64,000 nt of DNA from Nanobdellota archaeon (GTDB taxonomy: Archaea; Nanobdellota; Nanobdellia; Pacearchaeales; GW2011-AR1). The translations under genes and the position numbers were made by a program. The stretch is from positions 81,944-145,943 of the forward strand of contig JAUSIK010000016.1 of assembly GCA_030648155.1 (NCBI GenBank). The letters are read 5' to 3'. Positions 3,463 to 40,770 of this stretch are shown here, one piece after another. Under the pieces are notes generated by a model that ran no database searches, had not been told where the DNA came from, and worked only from the letters and a program-made list of their open reading frames with translations. How positions within the stretch are numbered: the stretch's first letter is position 1; each line of letters begins with the position of its first letter.

Positions 3463-5256
3463 ATGAAAATAACAATAAACGAAGTTTTTTCTGAAGACGA
3501 GAGTATTTTAGACAAAGTCGAAAAGAAAGAGTTCGAGTCAGGAGAGGTTTTGAAGCTTAGAGTAGATGCTGAAGAAATGTCTAAAGAGGCTGAAGTTAAT
3601 CAACTCATTTCATATAACTCTATAAAGAAAAATTTAGAATATGAGCTCCCGCATCAGAGAGAAGGAGCAATTAAAATTCTAAGGGATATGAACTGCATGG
3701 CATTATTAGCCGATGAAGTAGGCTTGGGAAAGACTATTACGACAGGGATGATAATCAAGGAGTGCATTGTAAGGGGACTTGTAAAAAGAGTGCTGATATT
3801 AACTCCGCCATCACTTGTTGATCAATGGGCTCAAGAGTTAAAATTTAAATTTGATTTAGATTTTGAGATTATTGAAAATAAAAATCAATGGGACAAAATA
3901 AACTTTGCTATAGCATCCATAGATAGAGTTAAAGGATATGATGAGGCACAAGGAAAATTCAAGCATGATAAAGTTCATGAAATTGAGTGGGATTTATTGA
4001 TCGTTGATGAAGCCCACAAACTAAAAGATAGGGATACAGTCAGATGGAGATTTGTTGATAAAATTCCTAAAAAAAGATTTTTAATTTTAACTGCAACGCC
4101 ATTTCAAAATGACCTGCTTGAACTTTATAGTTTACTAAATCTTTTGAAAAGAGGACATCTAGGAACTCTTAAGGAATTTAAGAAGAAATTTTTGTTTAGA
4201 GGAAATAAAAGATATCCTTTAAACCCTCATGAATTAAAAGATAAATTACAGGAAGTCATGGTAAGAAGAAGGAGAGATGAAACAGGGATTGACTATAAAA
4301 AGAGAATTCCTAGAATTGTTGCAGTTGAGATGTCAAAAGAAGAGGAGGAAATTTATAAGGATATAACCGAACTATTACAAACTAAATATTTCTCTGCGAA
4401 GGGTGAAGAAATTAGAGGGAAGCTAATTATTTATTCTCTTCTTCCTAAAATTACAAGTTCTTCTAAATCGGCAATAGAATCTTTGACTAAAATTGTAAAC
4501 AATCCCAAATATCACGATGGTACTAGAGAATTCGCCAATATGATATTAAATAAATGTTTGAATCTAAAAAAGGATTCTAAAATTGAAGCATTAACCGAAA
4601 TTGTTAAAAAAATATACTCTGAAGATAGGGATGCTAAAATATTGATATATACTAGACATCCTACTACGGCCAAATATATAATTGAGAAGTTAAGCACTCT
4701 GGGATTAAAACTTATTGATTTTATTGGTGGGATGAGCCGAGAAGAAAAATTAGAAAAAATAAAAGAGTTTAAAGCGGATGTAAATATTATGGTAAGCACT
4801 GAAACTGGAGCTGAAGGACTAAATTTCCAATTTTGCAGTAATTTGATAAATTATGATCTGCCATGGAATCCAATGGCTGTAGAGCAAAGAATTGGAAGGG
4901 TCGACCGAATAGGTCAGAAAAAAGACATGTACATTTATAGTTTAGCAAAAAAAAATACAATGGAAGAGCATGTAGTTGATTTAATAATTAATAAAATGTG
5001 CTGTATAGGACTTGTAATTGGTGAATTACCGATTATCTTGTTTAATCTTGGCCTTGATAGCAAAGATGAATCTGGACTAAGTAAAATTGAAGAGATGCTT
5101 TTGAATGCCTTTATAGATTCTAAAAATAATTTGGAAAAATTTGCAAAGGATGTTATTAGAATCAAAGACTTACTTGACAAGGGAATAGAAGAATATATGA
5201 AAACCAAAGATAATAATTCAGCTTTATTAGACGATGGAAAACAAGGAACTAATTGA
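3463..5256 (+). CDS. SNF2/SWI2-family helicase (minimal, 597 aa)
   Basis: Motif I LLADEVGLGKT, motif II LLIVDEAHKLK, motif III LTATPFQN, and C-terminal lobe motifs STETGAEGLNFQ and YDLPWNPMAVEQRIGRVDRIGQ. Confidence 0.9.
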   Translation: MKITINEVFSEDESILDKVEKKEFESGEVLKLRVDAEEMSKEAEVNQLISYNSIKKNLEYELPHQREGAIKILRDMNCMALLADEVGLGKTITTGMIIKECIVRGLVKRVLILTPPSLVDQWAQELKFKFDLDFEIIENKNQWDKINFAIASIDRVKGYDEAQGKFKHDKVHEIEWDLLIVDEAHKLKDRDTVRWRFVDKIPKKRFLILTATPFQNDLLELYSLLNLLKRGHLGTLKEFKKKFLFRGNKRYPLNPHELKDKLQEVMVRRRRDETGIDYKKRIPRIVAVEMSKEEEEIYKDITELLQTKYFSAKGEEIRGKLIIYSLLPKITSSSKSAIESLTKIVNNPKYHDGTREFANMILNKCLNLKKDSKIEALTEIVKKIYSEDRDAKILIYTRHPTTAKYIIEKLSTLGLKLIDFIGGMSREEKLEKIKEFKADVNIMVSTETGAEGLNFQFCSNLINYDLPWNPMAVEQRIGRVDRIGQKKDMYIYSLAKKNTMEEHVVDLIINKMCCIGLVIGELPIILFNLGLDSKDESGLSKIEEMLLNAFIDSKNNLEKFAKDVIRIKDLLDKGIEEYMKTKDNNSALLDDGKQGTN

Positions 5257-6787
5257 CATTAAAGATTTTACTTTGGATTTTTTTAAGAACCTGGATTGTG
5301 AGGTTAAAATGGATAAGGGTATATTTATCATAAATAAAATTCCTGTTGACTTTGAAGAGTATTATGGGAAAAAAGGACCTTATACATTGGTATTTGATCA
5401 AAATGTTGAAGGGGGAGAGTTTGTGGGTGCTGGGAGTACTTTGCTTAAGAGCATGCAAGATTACTTGGATAGAAAAGGCCAAACTTCCTTATTGAGGCTA
5501 GCAATAGAAATTGATCCAGTAAAAGAAGTCTCGCAAAGAATAAAACTTGGAAATTGCAAAATTGAACAAGTTATACAAAAGAAAGAATATAATGTTCTAA
5601 AAAGATTTACTTTTTCATCAATATTTCAATACTTAAATGAAAAAGAAAGATTTCTAAATTCAATTTATGTTGATCGAGGCAATATTGCAGAATTTGATAT
5701 TTCTAAATACTCTAGTGTAGAAGGCAGAAAGGATGATGTTAATATAGGGGATATAAAAAGGGACCATCAAATTGCTAAAGATGAATTAAAAAAAATTATT
5801 TTAGGAATTACTGAAAAAATTGGAGCTAAAATAGAAGAGAAATTAGAAAAAGAAATTGTTAGAATTAAAGATCATTATGGAAAACAAATTAAAGAAAAAG
5901 AAGAGCAAATAGGGGGTATAGAAAGACAATTAAAAAAAGCAGAAGAACAATTTAATAAAACTGCAGAAAATGAGAAAAAACAAATTCAAGATAAAATTGA
6001 GAAGCTAAAAAAAGATATTGAAATTATTAAAAATTCAGATTTAATTAATAAAACCAAAAAAGAAGAAGATTTTTTAATTAATGATGAAATAAGAAAGCAT
6101 GGATTAAATATTTCTAACAAATTAATAAATACAACTATAGTTTATTATCCGACTTTTATATTGGATGTGAATGTGATAAACAGCCAAAGCAAAGGAAACT
6201 TTGAAGTAAGATATAATCCCCATATACAATCATTAAGTTTTCCTTTTTGCAGGGCGTGCAATAGAGAAATTATGGATGTTTATTTATGCTCATCCGGGCA
6301 TGCTTCGTGTAGGTTGTGCTTAATGAAATGTTTATGCTGCAGCAAGGAATATTGCAAGAATTGCGTTGATAAAAAGTGCTCATCTTGCTTTAGAGATATA
6401 TGCAAGAAATGCTATTTAAGATGCAATGGATGCGGAAAAGGTTTTTGTGAAATGCATATAAGAAAAATAAATGACAATCAACATGCCTGTTTATCCTGCT
6501 TTGCCTCTTGTATTGGGTGCAGTAAGGCCGGGATCAAAAAGAATTTCTTTAAATGTCCGTCATGTGGAAGCGAGGCCTGTGAAAACTGTTCTAGAAAGAT
6601 TTTTGTAAAAGCTGGAATAAAAATGGCATGCCCAAGATGCACTCAAAAGTGCGATGCATGTAAAAAATTATATCAGAAATCTGAATATTATAAATTAAGG
6701 ACCTGTGAATGCGATTCATGCAATTCATTGACTAGATGCTTATCCTGCAAAAGAGTTTTATGTAAAAGAGTCAGGAAACAGTTTTGA
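5234..6787 (+). CDS. SNF2-associated protein: N-terminal globular region, K/E-rich coiled coil, C-terminal multi-CxxC (zinc-ribbon-rich) domain
   Basis: ORF track, 517 aa. The start overlaps the SNF2 stop by 23 nt. Residues ~175-295 are a K/E heptad-like region. I counted 35 Cys in the last ~180 residues, mostly as CxxC pairs. Confidence 0.7.
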   Translation: MENKELIDIKDFTLDFFKNLDCEVKMDKGIFIINKIPVDFEEYYGKKGPYTLVFDQNVEGGEFVGAGSTLLKSMQDYLDRKGQTSLLRLAIEIDPVKEVSQRIKLGNCKIEQVIQKKEYNVLKRFTFSSIFQYLNEKERFLNSIYVDRGNIAEFDISKYSSVEGRKDDVNIGDIKRDHQIAKDELKKIILGITEKIGAKIEEKLEKEIVRIKDHYGKQIKEKEEQIGGIERQLKKAEEQFNKTAENEKKQIQDKIEKLKKDIEIIKNSDLINKTKKEEDFLINDEIRKHGLNISNKLINTTIVYYPTFILDVNVINSQSKGNFEVRYNPHIQSLSFPFCRACNREIMDVYLCSSGHASCRLCLMKCLCCSKEYCKNCVDKKCSSCFRDICKKCYLRCNGCGKGFCEMHIRKINDNQHACLSCFASCIGCSKAGIKKNFFKCPSCGSEACENCSRKIFVKAGIKMACPRCTQKCDACKKLYQKSEYYKLRTCECDSCNSLTRCLSCKRVLCKRVRKQF

Positions 6788-6831
6788 CATAGTATATATA
6801 AAATTAAATATTAAGATTATTTTATTTAATT

Positions 6832-7638
6832 ATGGATTATGACGGAGTAATACAGGAAAGAAATTTAGAAAATATTGCTTCAAATAATGGGTTTAAGTTC
6901 AGTGATACATTCTTTCCTTATACTTCTGGAAAAATCGGACCTGAATTTGTAAATGCTGAAGTGGTCTGCCATAATAGAGATCACCATGATAGTGCAATTG
7001 AAGACCTAGCCAGATTAATAAGAAATAAAATTTCAGCTGAAAAATACGATTTTATTTCCGGAGGGGAAAGCAGAGATTGGGTTTTTTCCTTTCAAACTGC
7101 ACAAAAATTAGGAAAAGCTCACGTAATGCTTTACAAAGACGGAAAATATATTGGTGGACCTTTAAAAAATAAAAAAATAATCCATGTAGCAGATATTAAT
7201 AATGAAGGAAGCTCTATAGAAAAACATTGGAAACCAATAATCGAAAAAGAAGGGGGAAAAATTGAGACGGTATTCTTCTATGTTGAAAAATGCGATGAAG
7301 GCAAGCAAGTAATGAAAAGAATAGGATTAGAATCGTATGCTTTAGTTTATTTAGATGAAAATTCTTGGAAGTATCTTTTAGATAGAGAGTATATTACTAA
7401 AGAAAATTATAAATCTATATCAAAAAGAAAAAAAGACCCTGAAAAATGGGCTAGGGAGATGCTTTTATCTGAAAAGGGAATTGAAAGACTAAAGGAATTG
7501 CTAGATGGAAATAATAAAAACAGGGATAGAGCTTTAAAAGTTTTAGAGAGAGGTTATCCAGATTTAAAGGAAGAAATACTGGCAAGATTGAAAAATAAAA
7601 ACGGTGGAAAGATAGAAAGTCTTATTAAGATGAAATAA
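6832..7638 (+). CDS. Type I phosphoribosyltransferase (orotate PRTase-like) with a helical C-terminal extension
   Basis: PRPP-loop-like IIHVADINNEGSS and an upstream SGGESRDW. About 75 aa of K/E-rich tail follow. Family-level call. Confidence 0.55.
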   Translation: MDYDGVIQERNLENIASNNGFKFSDTFFPYTSGKIGPEFVNAEVVCHNRDHHDSAIEDLARLIRNKISAEKYDFISGGESRDWVFSFQTAQKLGKAHVMLYKDGKYIGGPLKNKKIIHVADINNEGSSIEKHWKPIIEKEGGKIETVFFYVEKCDEGKQVMKRIGLESYALVYLDENSWKYLLDREYITKENYKSISKRKKDPEKWAREMLLSEKGIERLKELLDGNNKNRDRALKVLERGYPDLKEEILARLKNKNGGKIESLIKMK

Positions 7639-16213: not shown

Positions 16214-16226
16214 TGCGGGAGGGAGG
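16214..16226 (-). repeat. Duplicate of the tRNA-Leu 3' end (cctccctcccgca), distal copy
   Basis: Exact 13-nt match to the last 13 nt of tRNA-Leu(UAA) (comp. 16341-16329). Also identical to the 3' end of tRNA-Leu(CAA). Confidence 0.8.
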
Positions 16227-16239
16227 CTCACGAGATTAT

Positions 16240-16328
16240 GATCTCGGATCCGTCAAACTTTACAAAGTTTGAGGATTCGAACTTATGCACAGCATTTTGA
16301 ATCACCCATATAATCTAAAGATTATATA
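16240..16328 (-). repeat. 89-nt element E, copy 1 (directly 3' of tRNA-Leu(UAA))
   Basis: 84/89 identical to 37892-37980 on the other strand. Contains three hairpins (atataatc/gattatat, gattcaaa/ttcgaatc, caaactt/aagtttg). Confidence 0.8.
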
Positions 16329-16457
16329 TGCGGGAGGGAGGATTCGAACCTCCGAAGGCACTAAGCCACAAGATAACCTATATCTTGTTAAGCTACTTTC
16401 TCTAACGAGAAAGCGACATCTTAAGTCTTGCGCGTTTGACCACTTCGCTACCCCCGC
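16329..16457 (-). tRNA. tRNA-Leu(UAA) with a ~45-nt intron at the canonical 37/38 position (comp. ~16419-16375)
   Basis: Manual cloverleaf: acceptor GCGGGGG/CTCCCGC, anticodon stem CAAGA/TCTTG, loop CTTAAG|A, long variable arm, T-arm GGAGG-TTCGAATC-CCTCC, discriminator A. A TATA-like gctttaaaaatg lies ~30 nt upstream. Confidence 0.8.
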
Positions 16458-17403: not shown

Positions 17404-18231
17404 ATGGAAGAGGTTTTAAAAAAGCTTAAGACAGAGTTAAAAATTAGAGGTTTTTCACCTTTGACATTAAGAAATTATTCATTTTTTGTAGAAAAATTTC
17501 TGCTTAAGTCCAATAAAAATGAGAACGATCTTACACAAGATGATGCGAAAGCTTACCTAGGGGAGCTTTTTGATTCAAAATCGAAAAATACTATTATGCT
17601 TGCTGCTGCTTCTCTTAAATTTTTTTATACTGAAATATTAGGCAAAGAATTTTCGCAGATTAAAATGCCTAAAAAAGATAAAAAATTACCTGAAGTCTTA
17701 ACTAAAGAGGAAGTAAGAAAATTAATAGAAAGTGCAGATAATATAAAATCTAGATTAATTATCTCACTGCTTTATTCCAGCGGATTAAGGGTTTCTGAAC
17801 TTGTAAATTTAAAGAAGGATGATTTAAACTTGCAAGAGAAAATTGGCTGGGTTAGAAGAGGAAAGGGAGGGAAAGACAGACTCATTACATTGTCTGTAAA
17901 TTTGGCTGGAGAATTAAAAGATTATTTTGAAATGAAAGGAAAAGACAAAGTTTATGTTTTTTCCAAGGATAAACCGCTGACTACTAGAAATATTCAAAAG
18001 ATAATTAAAGGAACCAGGATTAGGGCAGGAATAAATAAGAAAGTTACACCGCATACACTACGGCATTCTTTTGCGACTCATTTGCTTGAGGCAGGAACAG
18101 ATATTAGATTTATTCAGAGCATGCTCGGGCATAGTAGTATTGCTACAACTCAAATTTACGCGCATGTTTCAACTGATGAAATAAAGAAAATTAAAAATCC
18201 TTTAGATGTGCTGGATAACGATTCAAAGTGA
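17404..18231 (+). CDS. xerA: Tyrosine recombinase, XerA/XerC/D-like
   Basis: SAM-like N-domain, then catalytic residues in GLRVSELVNL (R), HTLRHSFATHLL (HxxR) and GHSSIATTQIYAHV (H...Y). The 275-aa size is typical of archaeal XerA. Confidence 0.85.
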   Translation: MEEVLKKLKTELKIRGFSPLTLRNYSFFVEKFLLKSNKNENDLTQDDAKAYLGELFDSKSKNTIMLAAASLKFFYTEILGKEFSQIKMPKKDKKLPEVLTKEEVRKLIESADNIKSRLIISLLYSSGLRVSELVNLKKDDLNLQEKIGWVRRGKGGKDRLITLSVNLAGELKDYFEMKGKDKVYVFSKDKPLTTRNIQKIIKGTRIRAGINKKVTPHTLRHSFATHLLEAGTDIRFIQSMLGHSSIATTQIYAHVSTDEIKKIKNPLDVLDNDSK

Positions 18232-24234: not shown

Positions 24235-24397
24235 ATAAAGAAATTCTCTAAAATTTCTAATACTCGTGAGAAATCTCTAATATTTATGCAGGAGTTTGTC
24301 TTGTCGATTTCTCCCGGTTCTCACAAAACCCCTCAGGTTTTGTGATTTTCATTTCTGGCCGATGCAGAGCATCGGGATATTAAACCCAGAAATGAAA
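24235..24397 (+). repeat. Bipartite intergenic repeat, copy 1 (conserved 5' module + variable core + 51-nt nested palindrome 24347-24397)
   Basis: The 5' module ataaagaaattctctaaaatttc and the 3' module tttcatttctgg-ccgatgc-aga-gcatcgg-gatattaaac-ccagaaatgaaa recur at 40602-40734. Possible structured sRNA or MITE-like element. Confidence 0.6.
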
Positions 24398-24438
24398 TAA
24401 GTAAACTTATAAACGTAATTCTACTGGGATTTTTATTC

Positions 24439-24522
24439 GCGGAGATGCCGGAGCGGTCAAACGGACGCGATTAAGGCTCGCGTGGCTTAGTGCCTTCGAA
24501 GGTTCGAATCCTTCTCTCCGCA
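24439..24522 (+). tRNA. tRNA-Leu with anticodon AAG (as folded by hand)
   Basis: Acceptor GCGGAGA/TCTCCGC, anticodon stem CGCGA/TCGCG, loop TTAAGGC, long variable arm TGGCTTAGTGCCTTC, T-arm GAAGG-TTCGAATC-CTTC, discriminator A. A TATA-like aaacttataaacg lies ~25-35 nt upstream. Confidence 0.75.
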
Positions 24523-24597
24523 TTTCATGATCAAAGATCATGTCAAATCTCAAGGATTTGAAAGGTTGCTAGATACAAAACCCGCTGGAGGTTTTGA

Positions 24598-24617
24598 TTC
24601 GGATACTTCTCTCCGCA
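24598..24617 (+). repeat. Degenerate duplicate of the tRNA-Leu(AAG) T-loop/3' end
   Basis: ttcggatacttctctccgca versus the tRNA's ttcgaatccttctctccgca (18/20). The last 12 nt (24606-24617) are exact. Confidence 0.75.
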
Positions 24618-24676
24618 TAACCTGTTGGAAAACAGGTTTAATCCAAAGGATTAATTGTGCAAAAGAAAAAATGCTG

Positions 24677-35966: not shown

Positions 35967-36386
35967 GTGAAAGATTTTGATATCGATTTTGGTTTAAATA
36001 AGAATATTCATGGATTTAGAAAGAAAGATATTGCTTCCCCTAAAATAGGAGATATTTATATTACTAAAGTTGGTCACAGAGGTATTACTCAAACACAAAA
36101 AGCGGAAGTTAAAAAAAGAGCAAAATATAGATGTGAGAAATGTGGAAAGAAAAAGGATTCTGAAGATTTAGAAGTCGACCATAAGATAGCAATTCATAAG
36201 TATAGTAAGGGGAAAGTTATGGATGAGGTTACGGCTAAGATTAATTATGGAATGAGAAGAGAAAAAATGCTATATGATAAAATAGATAATTATCAAGCAT
36301 TGTGTAAAAAATGCCATAATGCAAAAAATAAGGAAGAAGCTGGAGAAAGGGCTAAAAAAAGAAAACTCAATTCTATACTTGACTGA
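35967..36386 (+). CDS. HNH endonuclease
   Basis: CEKCGKK...LEVDHKIAIHK...ALCKKCHNAKN (CxxC...DH...N...CxxCH). GTG start as in the ORF track. Confidence 0.75.
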   Translation: MKDFDIDFGLNKNIHGFRKKDIASPKIGDIYITKVGHRGITQTQKAEVKKRAKYRCEKCGKKKDSEDLEVDHKIAIHKYSKGKVMDEVTAKINYGMRREKMLYDKIDNYQALCKKCHNAKNKEEAGERAKKRKLNSILD

Positions 36387-36470: not shown

Positions 36471-36587
36471 TGAAGACGGCCATAGTAATGAGGCAATACC
36501 TGTTCCCATTTCGAACACAGAAGTCAAGCTCACTACGTCTGCTGCGTTAGTCTCCGACAAGAGGCGAAGCACAGATGCTGTCTTCAC
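36471..36587 (+). rRNA. rrf: 5S ribosomal RNA (stand-alone)
   Basis: Terminal helix TGAAGACGG / CTGTCTTCA and the conserved core ggccatag...cccatttcgaacacagaagtcaagc, followed by a T-run (36589-36595). Confidence 0.85.
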
Positions 36588-37640: not shown

Positions 37641-37663
37641 GAGTTTATTCTTAGTTTTTATAT

Positions 37664-37747
37664 GCGGGGGTAGCGAAGTGGTCAAACGCGACAGCCTCAA
37701 GAGCTGTTTCCTTAGTGGATTCGGAGGTTCGAATCCTCCCTCCCGCA
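37664..37747 (+). tRNA. tRNA-Leu(CAA), intron-less
   Basis: Acceptor GCGGGGG/CTCCCGC, anticodon stem ACAGC/GCTGT, loop CTCAAGA, long variable arm, T-arm GGAGG-TTCGAATC-CCTCC. The first 27 nt and last 28 nt are identical to tRNA-Leu(UAA). Confidence 0.85.
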
Positions 37748-37876
37748 TTTATCCCATCAAAGATGGGATTCAATTCTGAAGGAATTGTGCATACGCTAGA
37801 CTACTGTTTTTATAACAGGTAATAGTTTCTTTGAACTCATAGAAGGTTTCTTTACAAAGAAAGCTTGTATTTCTGG

Positions 37877-37891
37877 ATCCTCCCTCCCGCA
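37877..37891 (+). repeat. Exact 15-nt duplicate of the tRNA-Leu(CAA) 3' end (atcctccctcccgca)
   Basis: Identical to 37733-37747. Confidence 0.85.
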
Positions 37892-37980
37892 TATATAATC
37901 TTTAGATTATATGGATGATTCGAAATGCTGTGTATAAGTTCGAATACTCAAACTTTGTAAAGTTTGATGGATCCGAGATC
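37892..37980 (+). repeat. 89-nt element E, copy 2
   Basis: 84/89 identical to the reverse complement of 16240-16328. Confidence 0.8.
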
Positions 37981-38151
37981 TTGTGTTTCTGCGACTCACC
38001 ATGGAAATAATTACCATGGATATTGCGCTGATGAGTCTGAAAGACAACCAAGAAAATTAATTGAAATACAGACTAGTCTTATAAAGTCTTATAGAATTCT
38101 TTAGATGATATTGGATAATTTTTTACTCTCTGCTATTTTTTTGAATAGATA

Positions 38152-40601: not shown

Positions 40602-40734
40602 ATAAAGAAATTCTCTAAAGTTTCCTACCTAACCAGGGCAGAGAGGCGCGGTATTCGGAAATTTTTGACTCGAGAATTTCTAATTTCATTTCTGGCCGAT
40701 GCAGAGCATCGAGGTATTAAACCCAGAAATGAAA
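40602..40734 (+). repeat. Bipartite intergenic repeat, copy 2 (51-nt nested palindrome at 40684-40734)
   Basis: Same 5' module (ataaagaaattctctaaagtttc) and 3' palindrome as 24235-24397. The core differs and is GC-rich (accagggcagagaggcgcgg). Confidence 0.6.
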
Positions 40735-40770
40735 TCAAAAGATTTAAATTGATATTTAATTGATAGTTTT

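Follow-up and report, generated by a model that had tools for sequence, protein, structure and literature searches.

The trailer of tRNA-Leu(AAG) appears, from its own sequence and that of its relatives, to belong to a family of short hairpin-rich modules that sit directly 3' of tRNA genes in Pacearchaeota-like DPANN archaea. We put at roughly 50% the probability that these trailers are gene-less, non-autonomous insertion modules, which duplicate the 3' end of the tRNA upon insertion. The window, by which we mean the whole 64-kb stretch of DNA analysed, has a G+C content of ~31%; among its genes are those for archaeal ribosomal proteins and RNA polymerase, one isolated 5S rRNA and a tRNA with an intron. 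The proteins closest to its RpoD are labelled Pacearchaeota or Nanoarchaeota, and its source is a Pacearchaeota-like DPANN archaeon.

Trailers behind the Leu tRNA genes of the window

The genes S13-S4-S11-rpoD lie upstream of the tRNA-Leu(AAG) gene, and trailers are present behind all three Leu tRNA genes of the window. Their parts are as follows.

24439-24522, plus strand: tRNA-Leu(AAG), host gene of the trailer; found by ARAGORN and by Rfam (tRNA, 52 bits); intact, CCA not encoded
24523-24597, plus strand: unit A, 75 nt; ttt, hairpins 1-3 and a linker with gctagatac, from sequence and fold
24523-24525, plus strand: ttt, start of the AAG trailer, read directly in the sequence
24526-24542, plus strand: hairpin 1 of unit A, catgatc/aaa/gatcatg
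24543-24561, plus strand: hairpin 2 of unit A, tcaaatc/tcaag/gatttga
24568-24576, plus strand: gctagatac in the linker of unit A
24576-24596, plus strand: hairpin 3 of unit A, caaaacc/cgctgga/ggttttg
24598-24617, plus strand: direct repeat ttcggatacttctctccgca, copying its own tRNA from T-loop to discriminator (positions 54-73)
24618 to ~24676, plus strand: apparent fragment of an older unit, lacking a terminal repeat; hairpins aacctgtt/ggaa/aacaggtt and taatcc/aaa/ggatta, then attgtgcaaaag
37663-37748, plus strand: tRNA-Leu(CAA)
37749-37876, plus strand: unit A-prime, 128 nt; left part homologous to unit A, then hairpin 3 and the motif M45
37877-37891, plus strand: exact 15-nt repeat atcctccctcccgca, equal to tRNA-Leu(CAA) positions 59-73
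37892-37980, plus strand: unit B, truncated at its right end and lacking a final repeat; adjoins the A-prime repeat
16329-16457, minus strand: tRNA-Leu(TAA), intron-bearing; from Rfam, sequence and ARAGORN with introns
16227-16328, minus strand: unit B, 102 nt, with an internal T-loop relic gttcgaatcctc
16214-16226, minus strand: exact 13-nt repeat cctccctcccgca, equal to the 3' end of tRNA-Leu(TAA)

Direct reading of the AAG trailer gave the parts, coordinates and order of the original prediction, which had also described the terminal stretch as a copy of the tRNA's T-loop and 3' end. That copy is real: ttcggatacttctctccgca (24598-24617) matches the tRNA's ttcgaatccttctctccgca (24503-24522) at 18 of 20 positions and the final 12 nt are exact, while within the 64 kb the 11-mer ttctctccgca is found at just two places, 95 nt apart. 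The 95-nt trailer folds as three hairpins at -25.8 kcal/mol (z = -2.0 against dinucleotide shuffles). Behind the repeat, the fragment at 24618 to ~24676 extends to the stop of a VanZ-like gene, and its attgtgcaaaag matches atttgtgcaaaagc in the second unit of locus L156. Because the repeat has two mismatches and a fragment of an older unit follows, unit A of the window looks like an old copy, with the remains of a still older one behind it.

The tRNA-Leu(CAA) trailer, from 37749 onward, has the same order of parts, again as predicted, and the homology between A-prime and unit A covers hairpins 1 and 2 and tgtgcatacgctagac. The two copies of unit B are 95% identical over 104 nt (the 37892-37980 region against 16240-16343), including the flanking tRNA 3'-end repeat, and the B units at 16214-16343 (minus strand) and 37877-37980 (plus strand) form inverted repeats 21.5 kb apart. 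The downstream flank of tRNA-Leu(TAA) in the window is 71% homologous to the downstream flank of tRNA-Leu(AAG) in the related locus L009 (5641-5940), indicating that gene order has been shuffled between Leu-tRNA loci, probably through B-type repeats. Short-read contigs of the same organism (L001, L162 and L163; Logan, SRR13727527) stop at or near tRNA-Leu loci, and such repeats may explain assembly breaks at tRNA loci.

Several further observations concern the neighbourhood of these genes. The intron of tRNA-Leu(TAA) is ~45 nt long and lies after the anticodon; ARAGORN missed the gene when run without intron mode and Rfam found it. A 52-nt nested-hairpin repeat (-23.6 kcal/mol) occurs at 24347-24398, ~40 nt upstream of tRNA-Leu(AAG), and at 40684-40735, upstream of a rhodanese-like gene; the two copies are 96% identical, and none of the fetched loci has the repeat. 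The stretch at ~38005-38058, which separates unit B from tRNA-Arg(CCT), has TGATGA, two bases on CTGA and a weak hit to the C/D-box snoRNA ceN65 (E = 0.2), and is possibly a C/D-box small RNA.

Units, repeats and empty sites in related archaea

The comparative DNA came from metagenome assemblies throughout, one set of loci being chosen by pattern. We fetched the syntenic rpoD-linked tRNA-Leu locus, whose anticodon is AAG or GAG, from related metagenomic species, and the rpoD survey covered 80 additional loci from species-representative genomes, with some redundant contigs of the same species counted. A copy of the gene's own last 12 nt (at most one mismatch) was found within 700 nt downstream of 18 of 79 tRNA-Leu genes in this survey, as against 1 of 22 calls for other tRNAs, which is probably a miscalled Leu, and the repeat sequence changed from genome to genome along with the tRNA. 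Units in the survey measured 66-170 nt with their repeat, and the exact repeat of 12-19 nt always ended at the discriminator. Across all loci, units span 38-227 nt with the repeat excluded, start 0-4 nt past the discriminator and keep a single orientation throughout; the terminal repeat is a copy of the host tRNA's last 12-21 nt, running from the T-loop or nearby to N73. The 3'-end copy, which had first seemed a peculiarity of one tRNA, is therefore a regular feature and always matches the local tRNA, in the manner of a target duplication or an att repeat.

A metagenome scan by the conserved right half of A-prime added further tRNA loci. The original prediction had asked whether homologous trailers exist only behind Leu tRNAs, and they do not: units lie behind Ser(GGA), Ser(GCT), Tyr(GTA) and Glu(CTC) genes, and also behind Arg(GCG), Gly(GCC) and Val(TAC) genes in the same metagenome loci. 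The longest tandem arrays, those of L111/L120, have four units. Unit A has full-length homologues in two settings: as the last unit of the L111/L120 array, which follows tRNA-Leu(TAG), and as the second unit behind tRNA-Leu(TAA) in L159. Among 149 tRNA calls, exact 13-mers of the tRNA's own end were found only 51-378 nt downstream, the exceptions being a Leu pair with identical 3' ends in L080 and the oppositely oriented Leu genes of the window, whose copies are inverted. Among these fetched tRNA loci there was no repeat pair more than 378 nt apart and no kilobase-sized relative with such repeats. No copy of the B-core pattern was found in contigs of the species-representative genomes, and the genome of the window is evidently not one of these representatives. 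No within-species polymorphism was captured; the contigs with identical neighbour proteins were short, came from the same sample and ended at tRNA loci.

The length of the repeat is nearly constant within a unit family (15 nt for A-prime, 13 nt for B, ~20 nt for A), and this variation between families is unlike the product of a single enzyme with a fixed stagger. Distal repeats drift, as seen in L010 compared with L009 and in L157. The proximal copy always completes the tRNA in the ARAGORN calls, so splicing of a bulge-helix-bulge intron is not needed. L112 carries a perfect tandem duplication, and since both of its units bear the same mutated repeat, this array grew by duplication and not by re-insertion. 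In L100 a hairpin loop of the unit has taken up a stem-loop of ~85 nt, while the hairpin's own stem is preserved.

Insertion is best seen where orthologous sites with and without a trailer can be set side by side. At the rpoD-linked tRNA-Leu gene, units with repeats are found in the window and, among the relatives, only in L009-L012; no repeat was detected in L002, L013, L015/16, L017 or L018. L005 lacks a clean repeat, and a decayed copy of the 3' end, recognized by eye, closes the gap between its tRNA and the promoter. The gap from the tRNA to the VanZ gene is 154 nt in the window against 6 nt in L013, and in L002 the homologous flank begins at the tRNA end. Because orthologous tRNA genes in related species are without it, the AAG trailer is an insertion. 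A second case is provided by L091: its flank past the distal repeat can be aligned, at 75-79%, with sequence that in L074 and L085 directly adjoins the tRNA end, so that L091 carries a 118-nt insertion consisting of a unit and a 15-nt copy of the tRNA end. As a side observation, the anticodon of the rpoD-linked tRNA-Leu is AAG in the window and some relatives and GAG in others (L009, L015, L017 and L018 against L002, L005 and L013). To our knowledge, A34 is unusual in archaea, and we know of no archaeal A34 deamination.

The sequence of the repeats points to the target as their source. In L009 the repeats equal that locus's own tRNA sequence (cctccttcccgca), unlike those of the window. Units of the A-prime family share one junction behind Leu, Ser(GGA, GCT) and Tyr genes, namely ...ttgtatttctgg followed by local tRNA positions 59-73, and position 59 of the repeat agrees with the host as well, with a behind Leu genes but t behind Ser and Tyr genes. 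Such locally matching repeats indicate duplication from the target, since a repeat borne by the element would not match each new host; conservative att recombination does not fit either, because the new tRNA would then end in the 3' sequence of the former host. Remains of earlier hosts do occur inside the units: the Tyr unit of L131 has a Leu-type relic (ttcccgca) near its left end, and decayed T-loop-like pieces lie within B and A-prime units, suggesting that units carry traces of the tRNAs they stood behind before.

Integrase scars, trailer RNA and tRNA cassettes as alternatives

Much of this anatomy could also be left by tyrosine integrases. Plasmids or viruses that integrate in the T-loop region with their own copy of the 3' end, do so in tandem and then undergo internal deletion would leave att arms only, and the result would look like cis-mobilizable elements or like the arrays of partial tRNAs in tycheposon islands. 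For integrases that target tRNA genes, the classic identity block is just such a direct repeat, extending from the T-loop as far as the tRNA end, and the G-U-free palindromes described below would fit protein-binding sites. Tandem elements separated by partial tRNAs, with decayed remnants, are known for tycheposons (10.1101/2020.12.28.424599) and for elements of archaea (PMC9897764; PMC4779613), and tycheposon islands and cis-mobilizable elements combine a tRNA 3' location, direct repeats of a tRNA part and tandem arrays with older copies outward and decay (10.1101/2020.12.28.424599; PMC9897764). Our units are like integrated elements in their location, in repeats of the tRNA 3' part, in tandem arrays and in decay, but they measure 38-227 nt instead of kilobases, their repeats are 12-21 nt as against ~40-45 nt, and one unit family stands behind different tRNAs with repeats that match locally.

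Neither an integrase nor a full-length relative was found to go with such scars. No array contains a gene, no integrase lies in or beside the arrays, and among the 149 tRNA calls no kilobase-sized element is bounded by such repeats. The only recombinase of the window is encoded by the integrase-like gene at 17404-18231, which we considered as a partner enzyme and rejected as the housekeeping XerA (NF040815, 266 bits against a cut-off of 220); a XerA/dif-type site was likewise dropped on reading the sequence. Pfam found no transposase, Cas1, PolB or reverse transcriptase domain in 34 ORFs of the window (most of those of at least 230 aa plus two smaller; NCBIfam was run on four). A small HNH-endonuclease protein (35967-36386) was detected by Pfam just upstream of the lone 5S rRNA gene (36472-36586). 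Four IMG/VR scans, with the A-prime core, the B core and two tRNA-Leu 3' ends, were empty. The sequence to the left of the distal repeat shows no T-stem mimicry, and scars would also have to account for one family that stands behind Leu, Ser and Tyr with a locally matching repeat from position 59. Taken together, we regard integrase scars as unlikely, though they fit better than the readings that follow.

The hairpins bear on a different possibility, that the trailer is a functional RNA, co-transcribed with the tRNA and released by tRNase Z. It might then be a small structured RNA in its own right, or act in cis on 3' processing, and its tail would imitate the 3' end of the tRNA. All 25 distinct units examined open with a perfect hairpin (6-9 bp), although its sequence differs between units, and the first 32 nt fold with a median of -5.2 kcal/mol behind tRNAs with units and -0.5 kcal/mol behind those without (96 tRNAs, p = 2e-9). 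A run of at least five T within 15 nt of the tRNA was found in 0 of 29 unit-bearing genes. From this fold contrast and the missing T-runs we conclude that the opening hairpin belongs to the unit and is no intrinsic terminator; the same lack of T-runs between tRNA and unit leads one to expect read-through, as a trailer RNA would need, and T-runs do follow the distal repeat in L124 and L131.

Hairpins 1 and 2 were aligned with a covariance model in 19 copies, 16 of them distinct. Pairs are intact in 98.5% of cells of this alignment, which, being fitted to the model, leans towards structure, against 74% in shuffles; sliding the 3' partner by 1-3 columns lowered pairing to 24-47%. When whole A-prime units were aligned with MAFFT, RNAalifold recovered no structure, the hairpin columns being off register by one, and because of this one-column shift the covariance-model alignment replaced it. 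The compensatory changes of the original prediction are borne out, with double changes at all 8 pairs of hairpin 1 and at 2 of 6 pairs of hairpin 2, and the hairpins keep a conserved register across the 16 distinct copies. Its inference of selection on structure stands, the trailer with its conserved register being no neutral debris; its reading as a whole stands in part, as the empty orthologous sites speak for an insertion and not for an ancestral trailer under purifying selection.

Conserved structure with covariation is what a trailer RNA would show, and on the sense strand whole units fold with slightly greater stability and with more G-U pairs (p = 0.02), most plainly in the L100 unit (sense -61.0, antisense -44.8 kcal/mol). 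Hairpin 1, however, has a single G-U pair and zero one-sided (G-U type) changes in the 16 distinct copies, and by our own reading about half of the loops have 3 nt, often GAA, AAA or GTA, closed by C-G. The missing G-U intermediates and the 3-nt loops closed by C-G point to DNA palindromes more than to RNA. Presence differs between orthologous sites, unit order and type vary, the distal repeats drift as described above, and no complement of the tail that could form a tRNA-like minihelix was seen by eye. Rfam 15, run on both trailers at gathering and permissive thresholds, passed the tRNA alone, the other hits being weak and at chance level. More specific RNA roles were dropped as well. No C/D-box or H/ACA guide boxes are in register, and the core motifs of a hammerhead or HDV-like tRNA-releasing ribozyme are absent on reading the sequence, as is any Rfam hit to one. 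Altogether a functional trailer RNA seems to us improbable.

The repeats might finally be what is left of tandem tRNA cassettes, in which the tRNA was duplicated with the ~45-nt motif M45 and a flank, and the downstream body then lost up to the T-loop, leaving only its last 15-20 nt. M45 (GTTTCTTTGA..TAGAA..TTTCTTTTCTAAAGAAAG.TTGTA) forms the right half of A-prime, at 37822-37869 in the window, and the metagenome scan returned ~40 free-standing copies (loci L099-L161). We had taken hits lacking an upstream tRNA for chance matches and dropped that view, as they are real free-standing copies. In five of the loci (L115, L132, L138, L147 and L156) M45 is followed after 0-2 nt by the start of an intact tRNA gene, and L156 shows the order M45, tRNA, flank, degenerate M45 and tRNA positions 54-73, just as a decayed cassette would; the perfect tandem duplication in L112 also fits. 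Such free-standing M45 upstream of intact tRNAs allows a non-mobile origin for part of the structure, with A-prime units as second copies of tRNA cassettes that suffered 5' deletion. M45 may serve stable-RNA genes as a promoter or leader, or it may be a tiny module in itself, possibly a mobile one. One free-standing copy sits within a group I intron of a 23S rRNA gene; the 23S rRNA gene of a related archaeon at 4026-7619 (minus strand) of L118 has two group I intron hits (45 and 35 bits; gathering score 50).

As an account of the whole family, decayed cassettes are very unlikely. Units A, B and most other families lack M45, and in DNA not selected by the M45 pattern the motif occurs only inside tRNA-Leu trailers and never upstream of a tRNA. 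The hairpin flank is missing behind repeat-less tRNAs, and deletions that arose independently would not all have produced one junction, ttgtatttctgg joined to position 59, at Leu, Ser and Tyr loci. A further alternative, fortuitous resemblance or neutral decay of sequence next to the tRNA, might draw on the z-score of only -2.0 for the single-copy fold; it is refuted by dozens of independently assembled loci that show the arrangement with its architecture conserved and with covariation, and can practically be discarded. Reading of the sequence also disposed of a CRISPR-like array, as the 'spacers' are conserved families, and of a retroviral-type primer-binding site, as the repeat is in the sense orientation, not complementary, and lacks CCA.

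Known elements and a possible insertion route

Read as insertion modules, the units can be compared with several known systems. Family 2 casposons of Methanosarcina target the 3' end of tRNA-Leu and form tandem arrays that share the duplication, which is family-specific and from 14 to 35 bp long; they are multi-kilobase elements with Cas1, PolB and terminal inverted repeats, insert in either orientation, and produce a duplication that starts with CGCA and runs downstream of the tRNA (PMC4779613). The units have in common with them an archaeal host, the tRNA-Leu 3' end, tandem arrays and a long family-specific duplication (15, 13 and ~20 nt here), but they are gene-less, have a fixed orientation and a repeat that ends with the tRNA's last bases, and no terminal inverted repeats were seen when the ends of A, A-prime and B were compared by eye. 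This also sets them apart from MITEs, which combine terminal inverted repeats with a short duplication of 2-10 bp, the duplication here being longer.

For palindromic elements of the IS200/IS605 type, the insertion point lies 3' of a target of 4-5 nt and no duplication is made. They share with the units the absence of genes and of terminal inverted repeats, the presence of hairpins (subterminal in their case) and strand specificity, and probably move via single-stranded DNA; the units, however, have varying junction bases (CGCA, GGCG, GGGA, GGCA and CCCA) and a repeat of 12-21 nt. Target-primed retroelements are alike in fixed orientation, in one sharp and one less sharp boundary, in long variable duplications and in carrying relics of hosts, as in L131. 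The Neurospora mitochondrial retroplasmid integrates at tRNA 3' ends through hybrid cDNA, and a methylated nucleotide at position 58 stops reverse transcriptases; the A-prime repeat starts at position 59, just after it. Against this likeness, the hairpins have the look of palindromes in DNA, the junction lacks the CCA that a mature tRNA template would leave, and no reverse transcriptase was seen.

From anatomy alone we infer the following insertion mechanism. The repeat would be made from the local tRNA gene at insertion: one strand would be cut at N73/N74, the opposite one within the T-loop or close to it, and synthesis would fill in; by this duplication of the target the tRNA would stay intact. 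New modules would enter beside the tRNA, and older ones would be pushed outward and decay. The near-perfect palindromes may serve as the recognition target of a putative trans-acting enzyme, or alternatively they may keep the module from disturbing the folding of the pre-tRNA. As to the intermediate, one can speculate on double-stranded DNA, hairpinned single-stranded DNA or target-primed reverse-transcribed cDNA.

The genomes of DPANN archaea are tiny, and descriptions of mobile elements in them are few. Only tentatively, and at clearly less than even odds, do we go further and propose the units as miniature mobile elements of DPANN archaea, of which we found no description, that insert in one orientation precisely after the discriminator of many different tRNA genes, duplicate the final 13-20 bp, lack inverted repeats and genes, are moved in trans and drive rearrangements of tRNA loci; the putative trans enzyme would read tRNA genes or hairpinned single strands. 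In such genomes it would be a mistake to annotate hairpins and partial tRNA copies that follow tRNA genes as terminators, pseudo-tRNAs or new small RNAs. If the units are merely integration scars, they would be a record of heavy traffic of unsampled elements. If they are mobile, a tRNA-gene-targeting insertion mechanism is still to be found, which would be of interest for site-specific DNA insertion. In either case, repeats of this kind behind different Leu tRNA genes can reorder the genes of the genomes that carry them.
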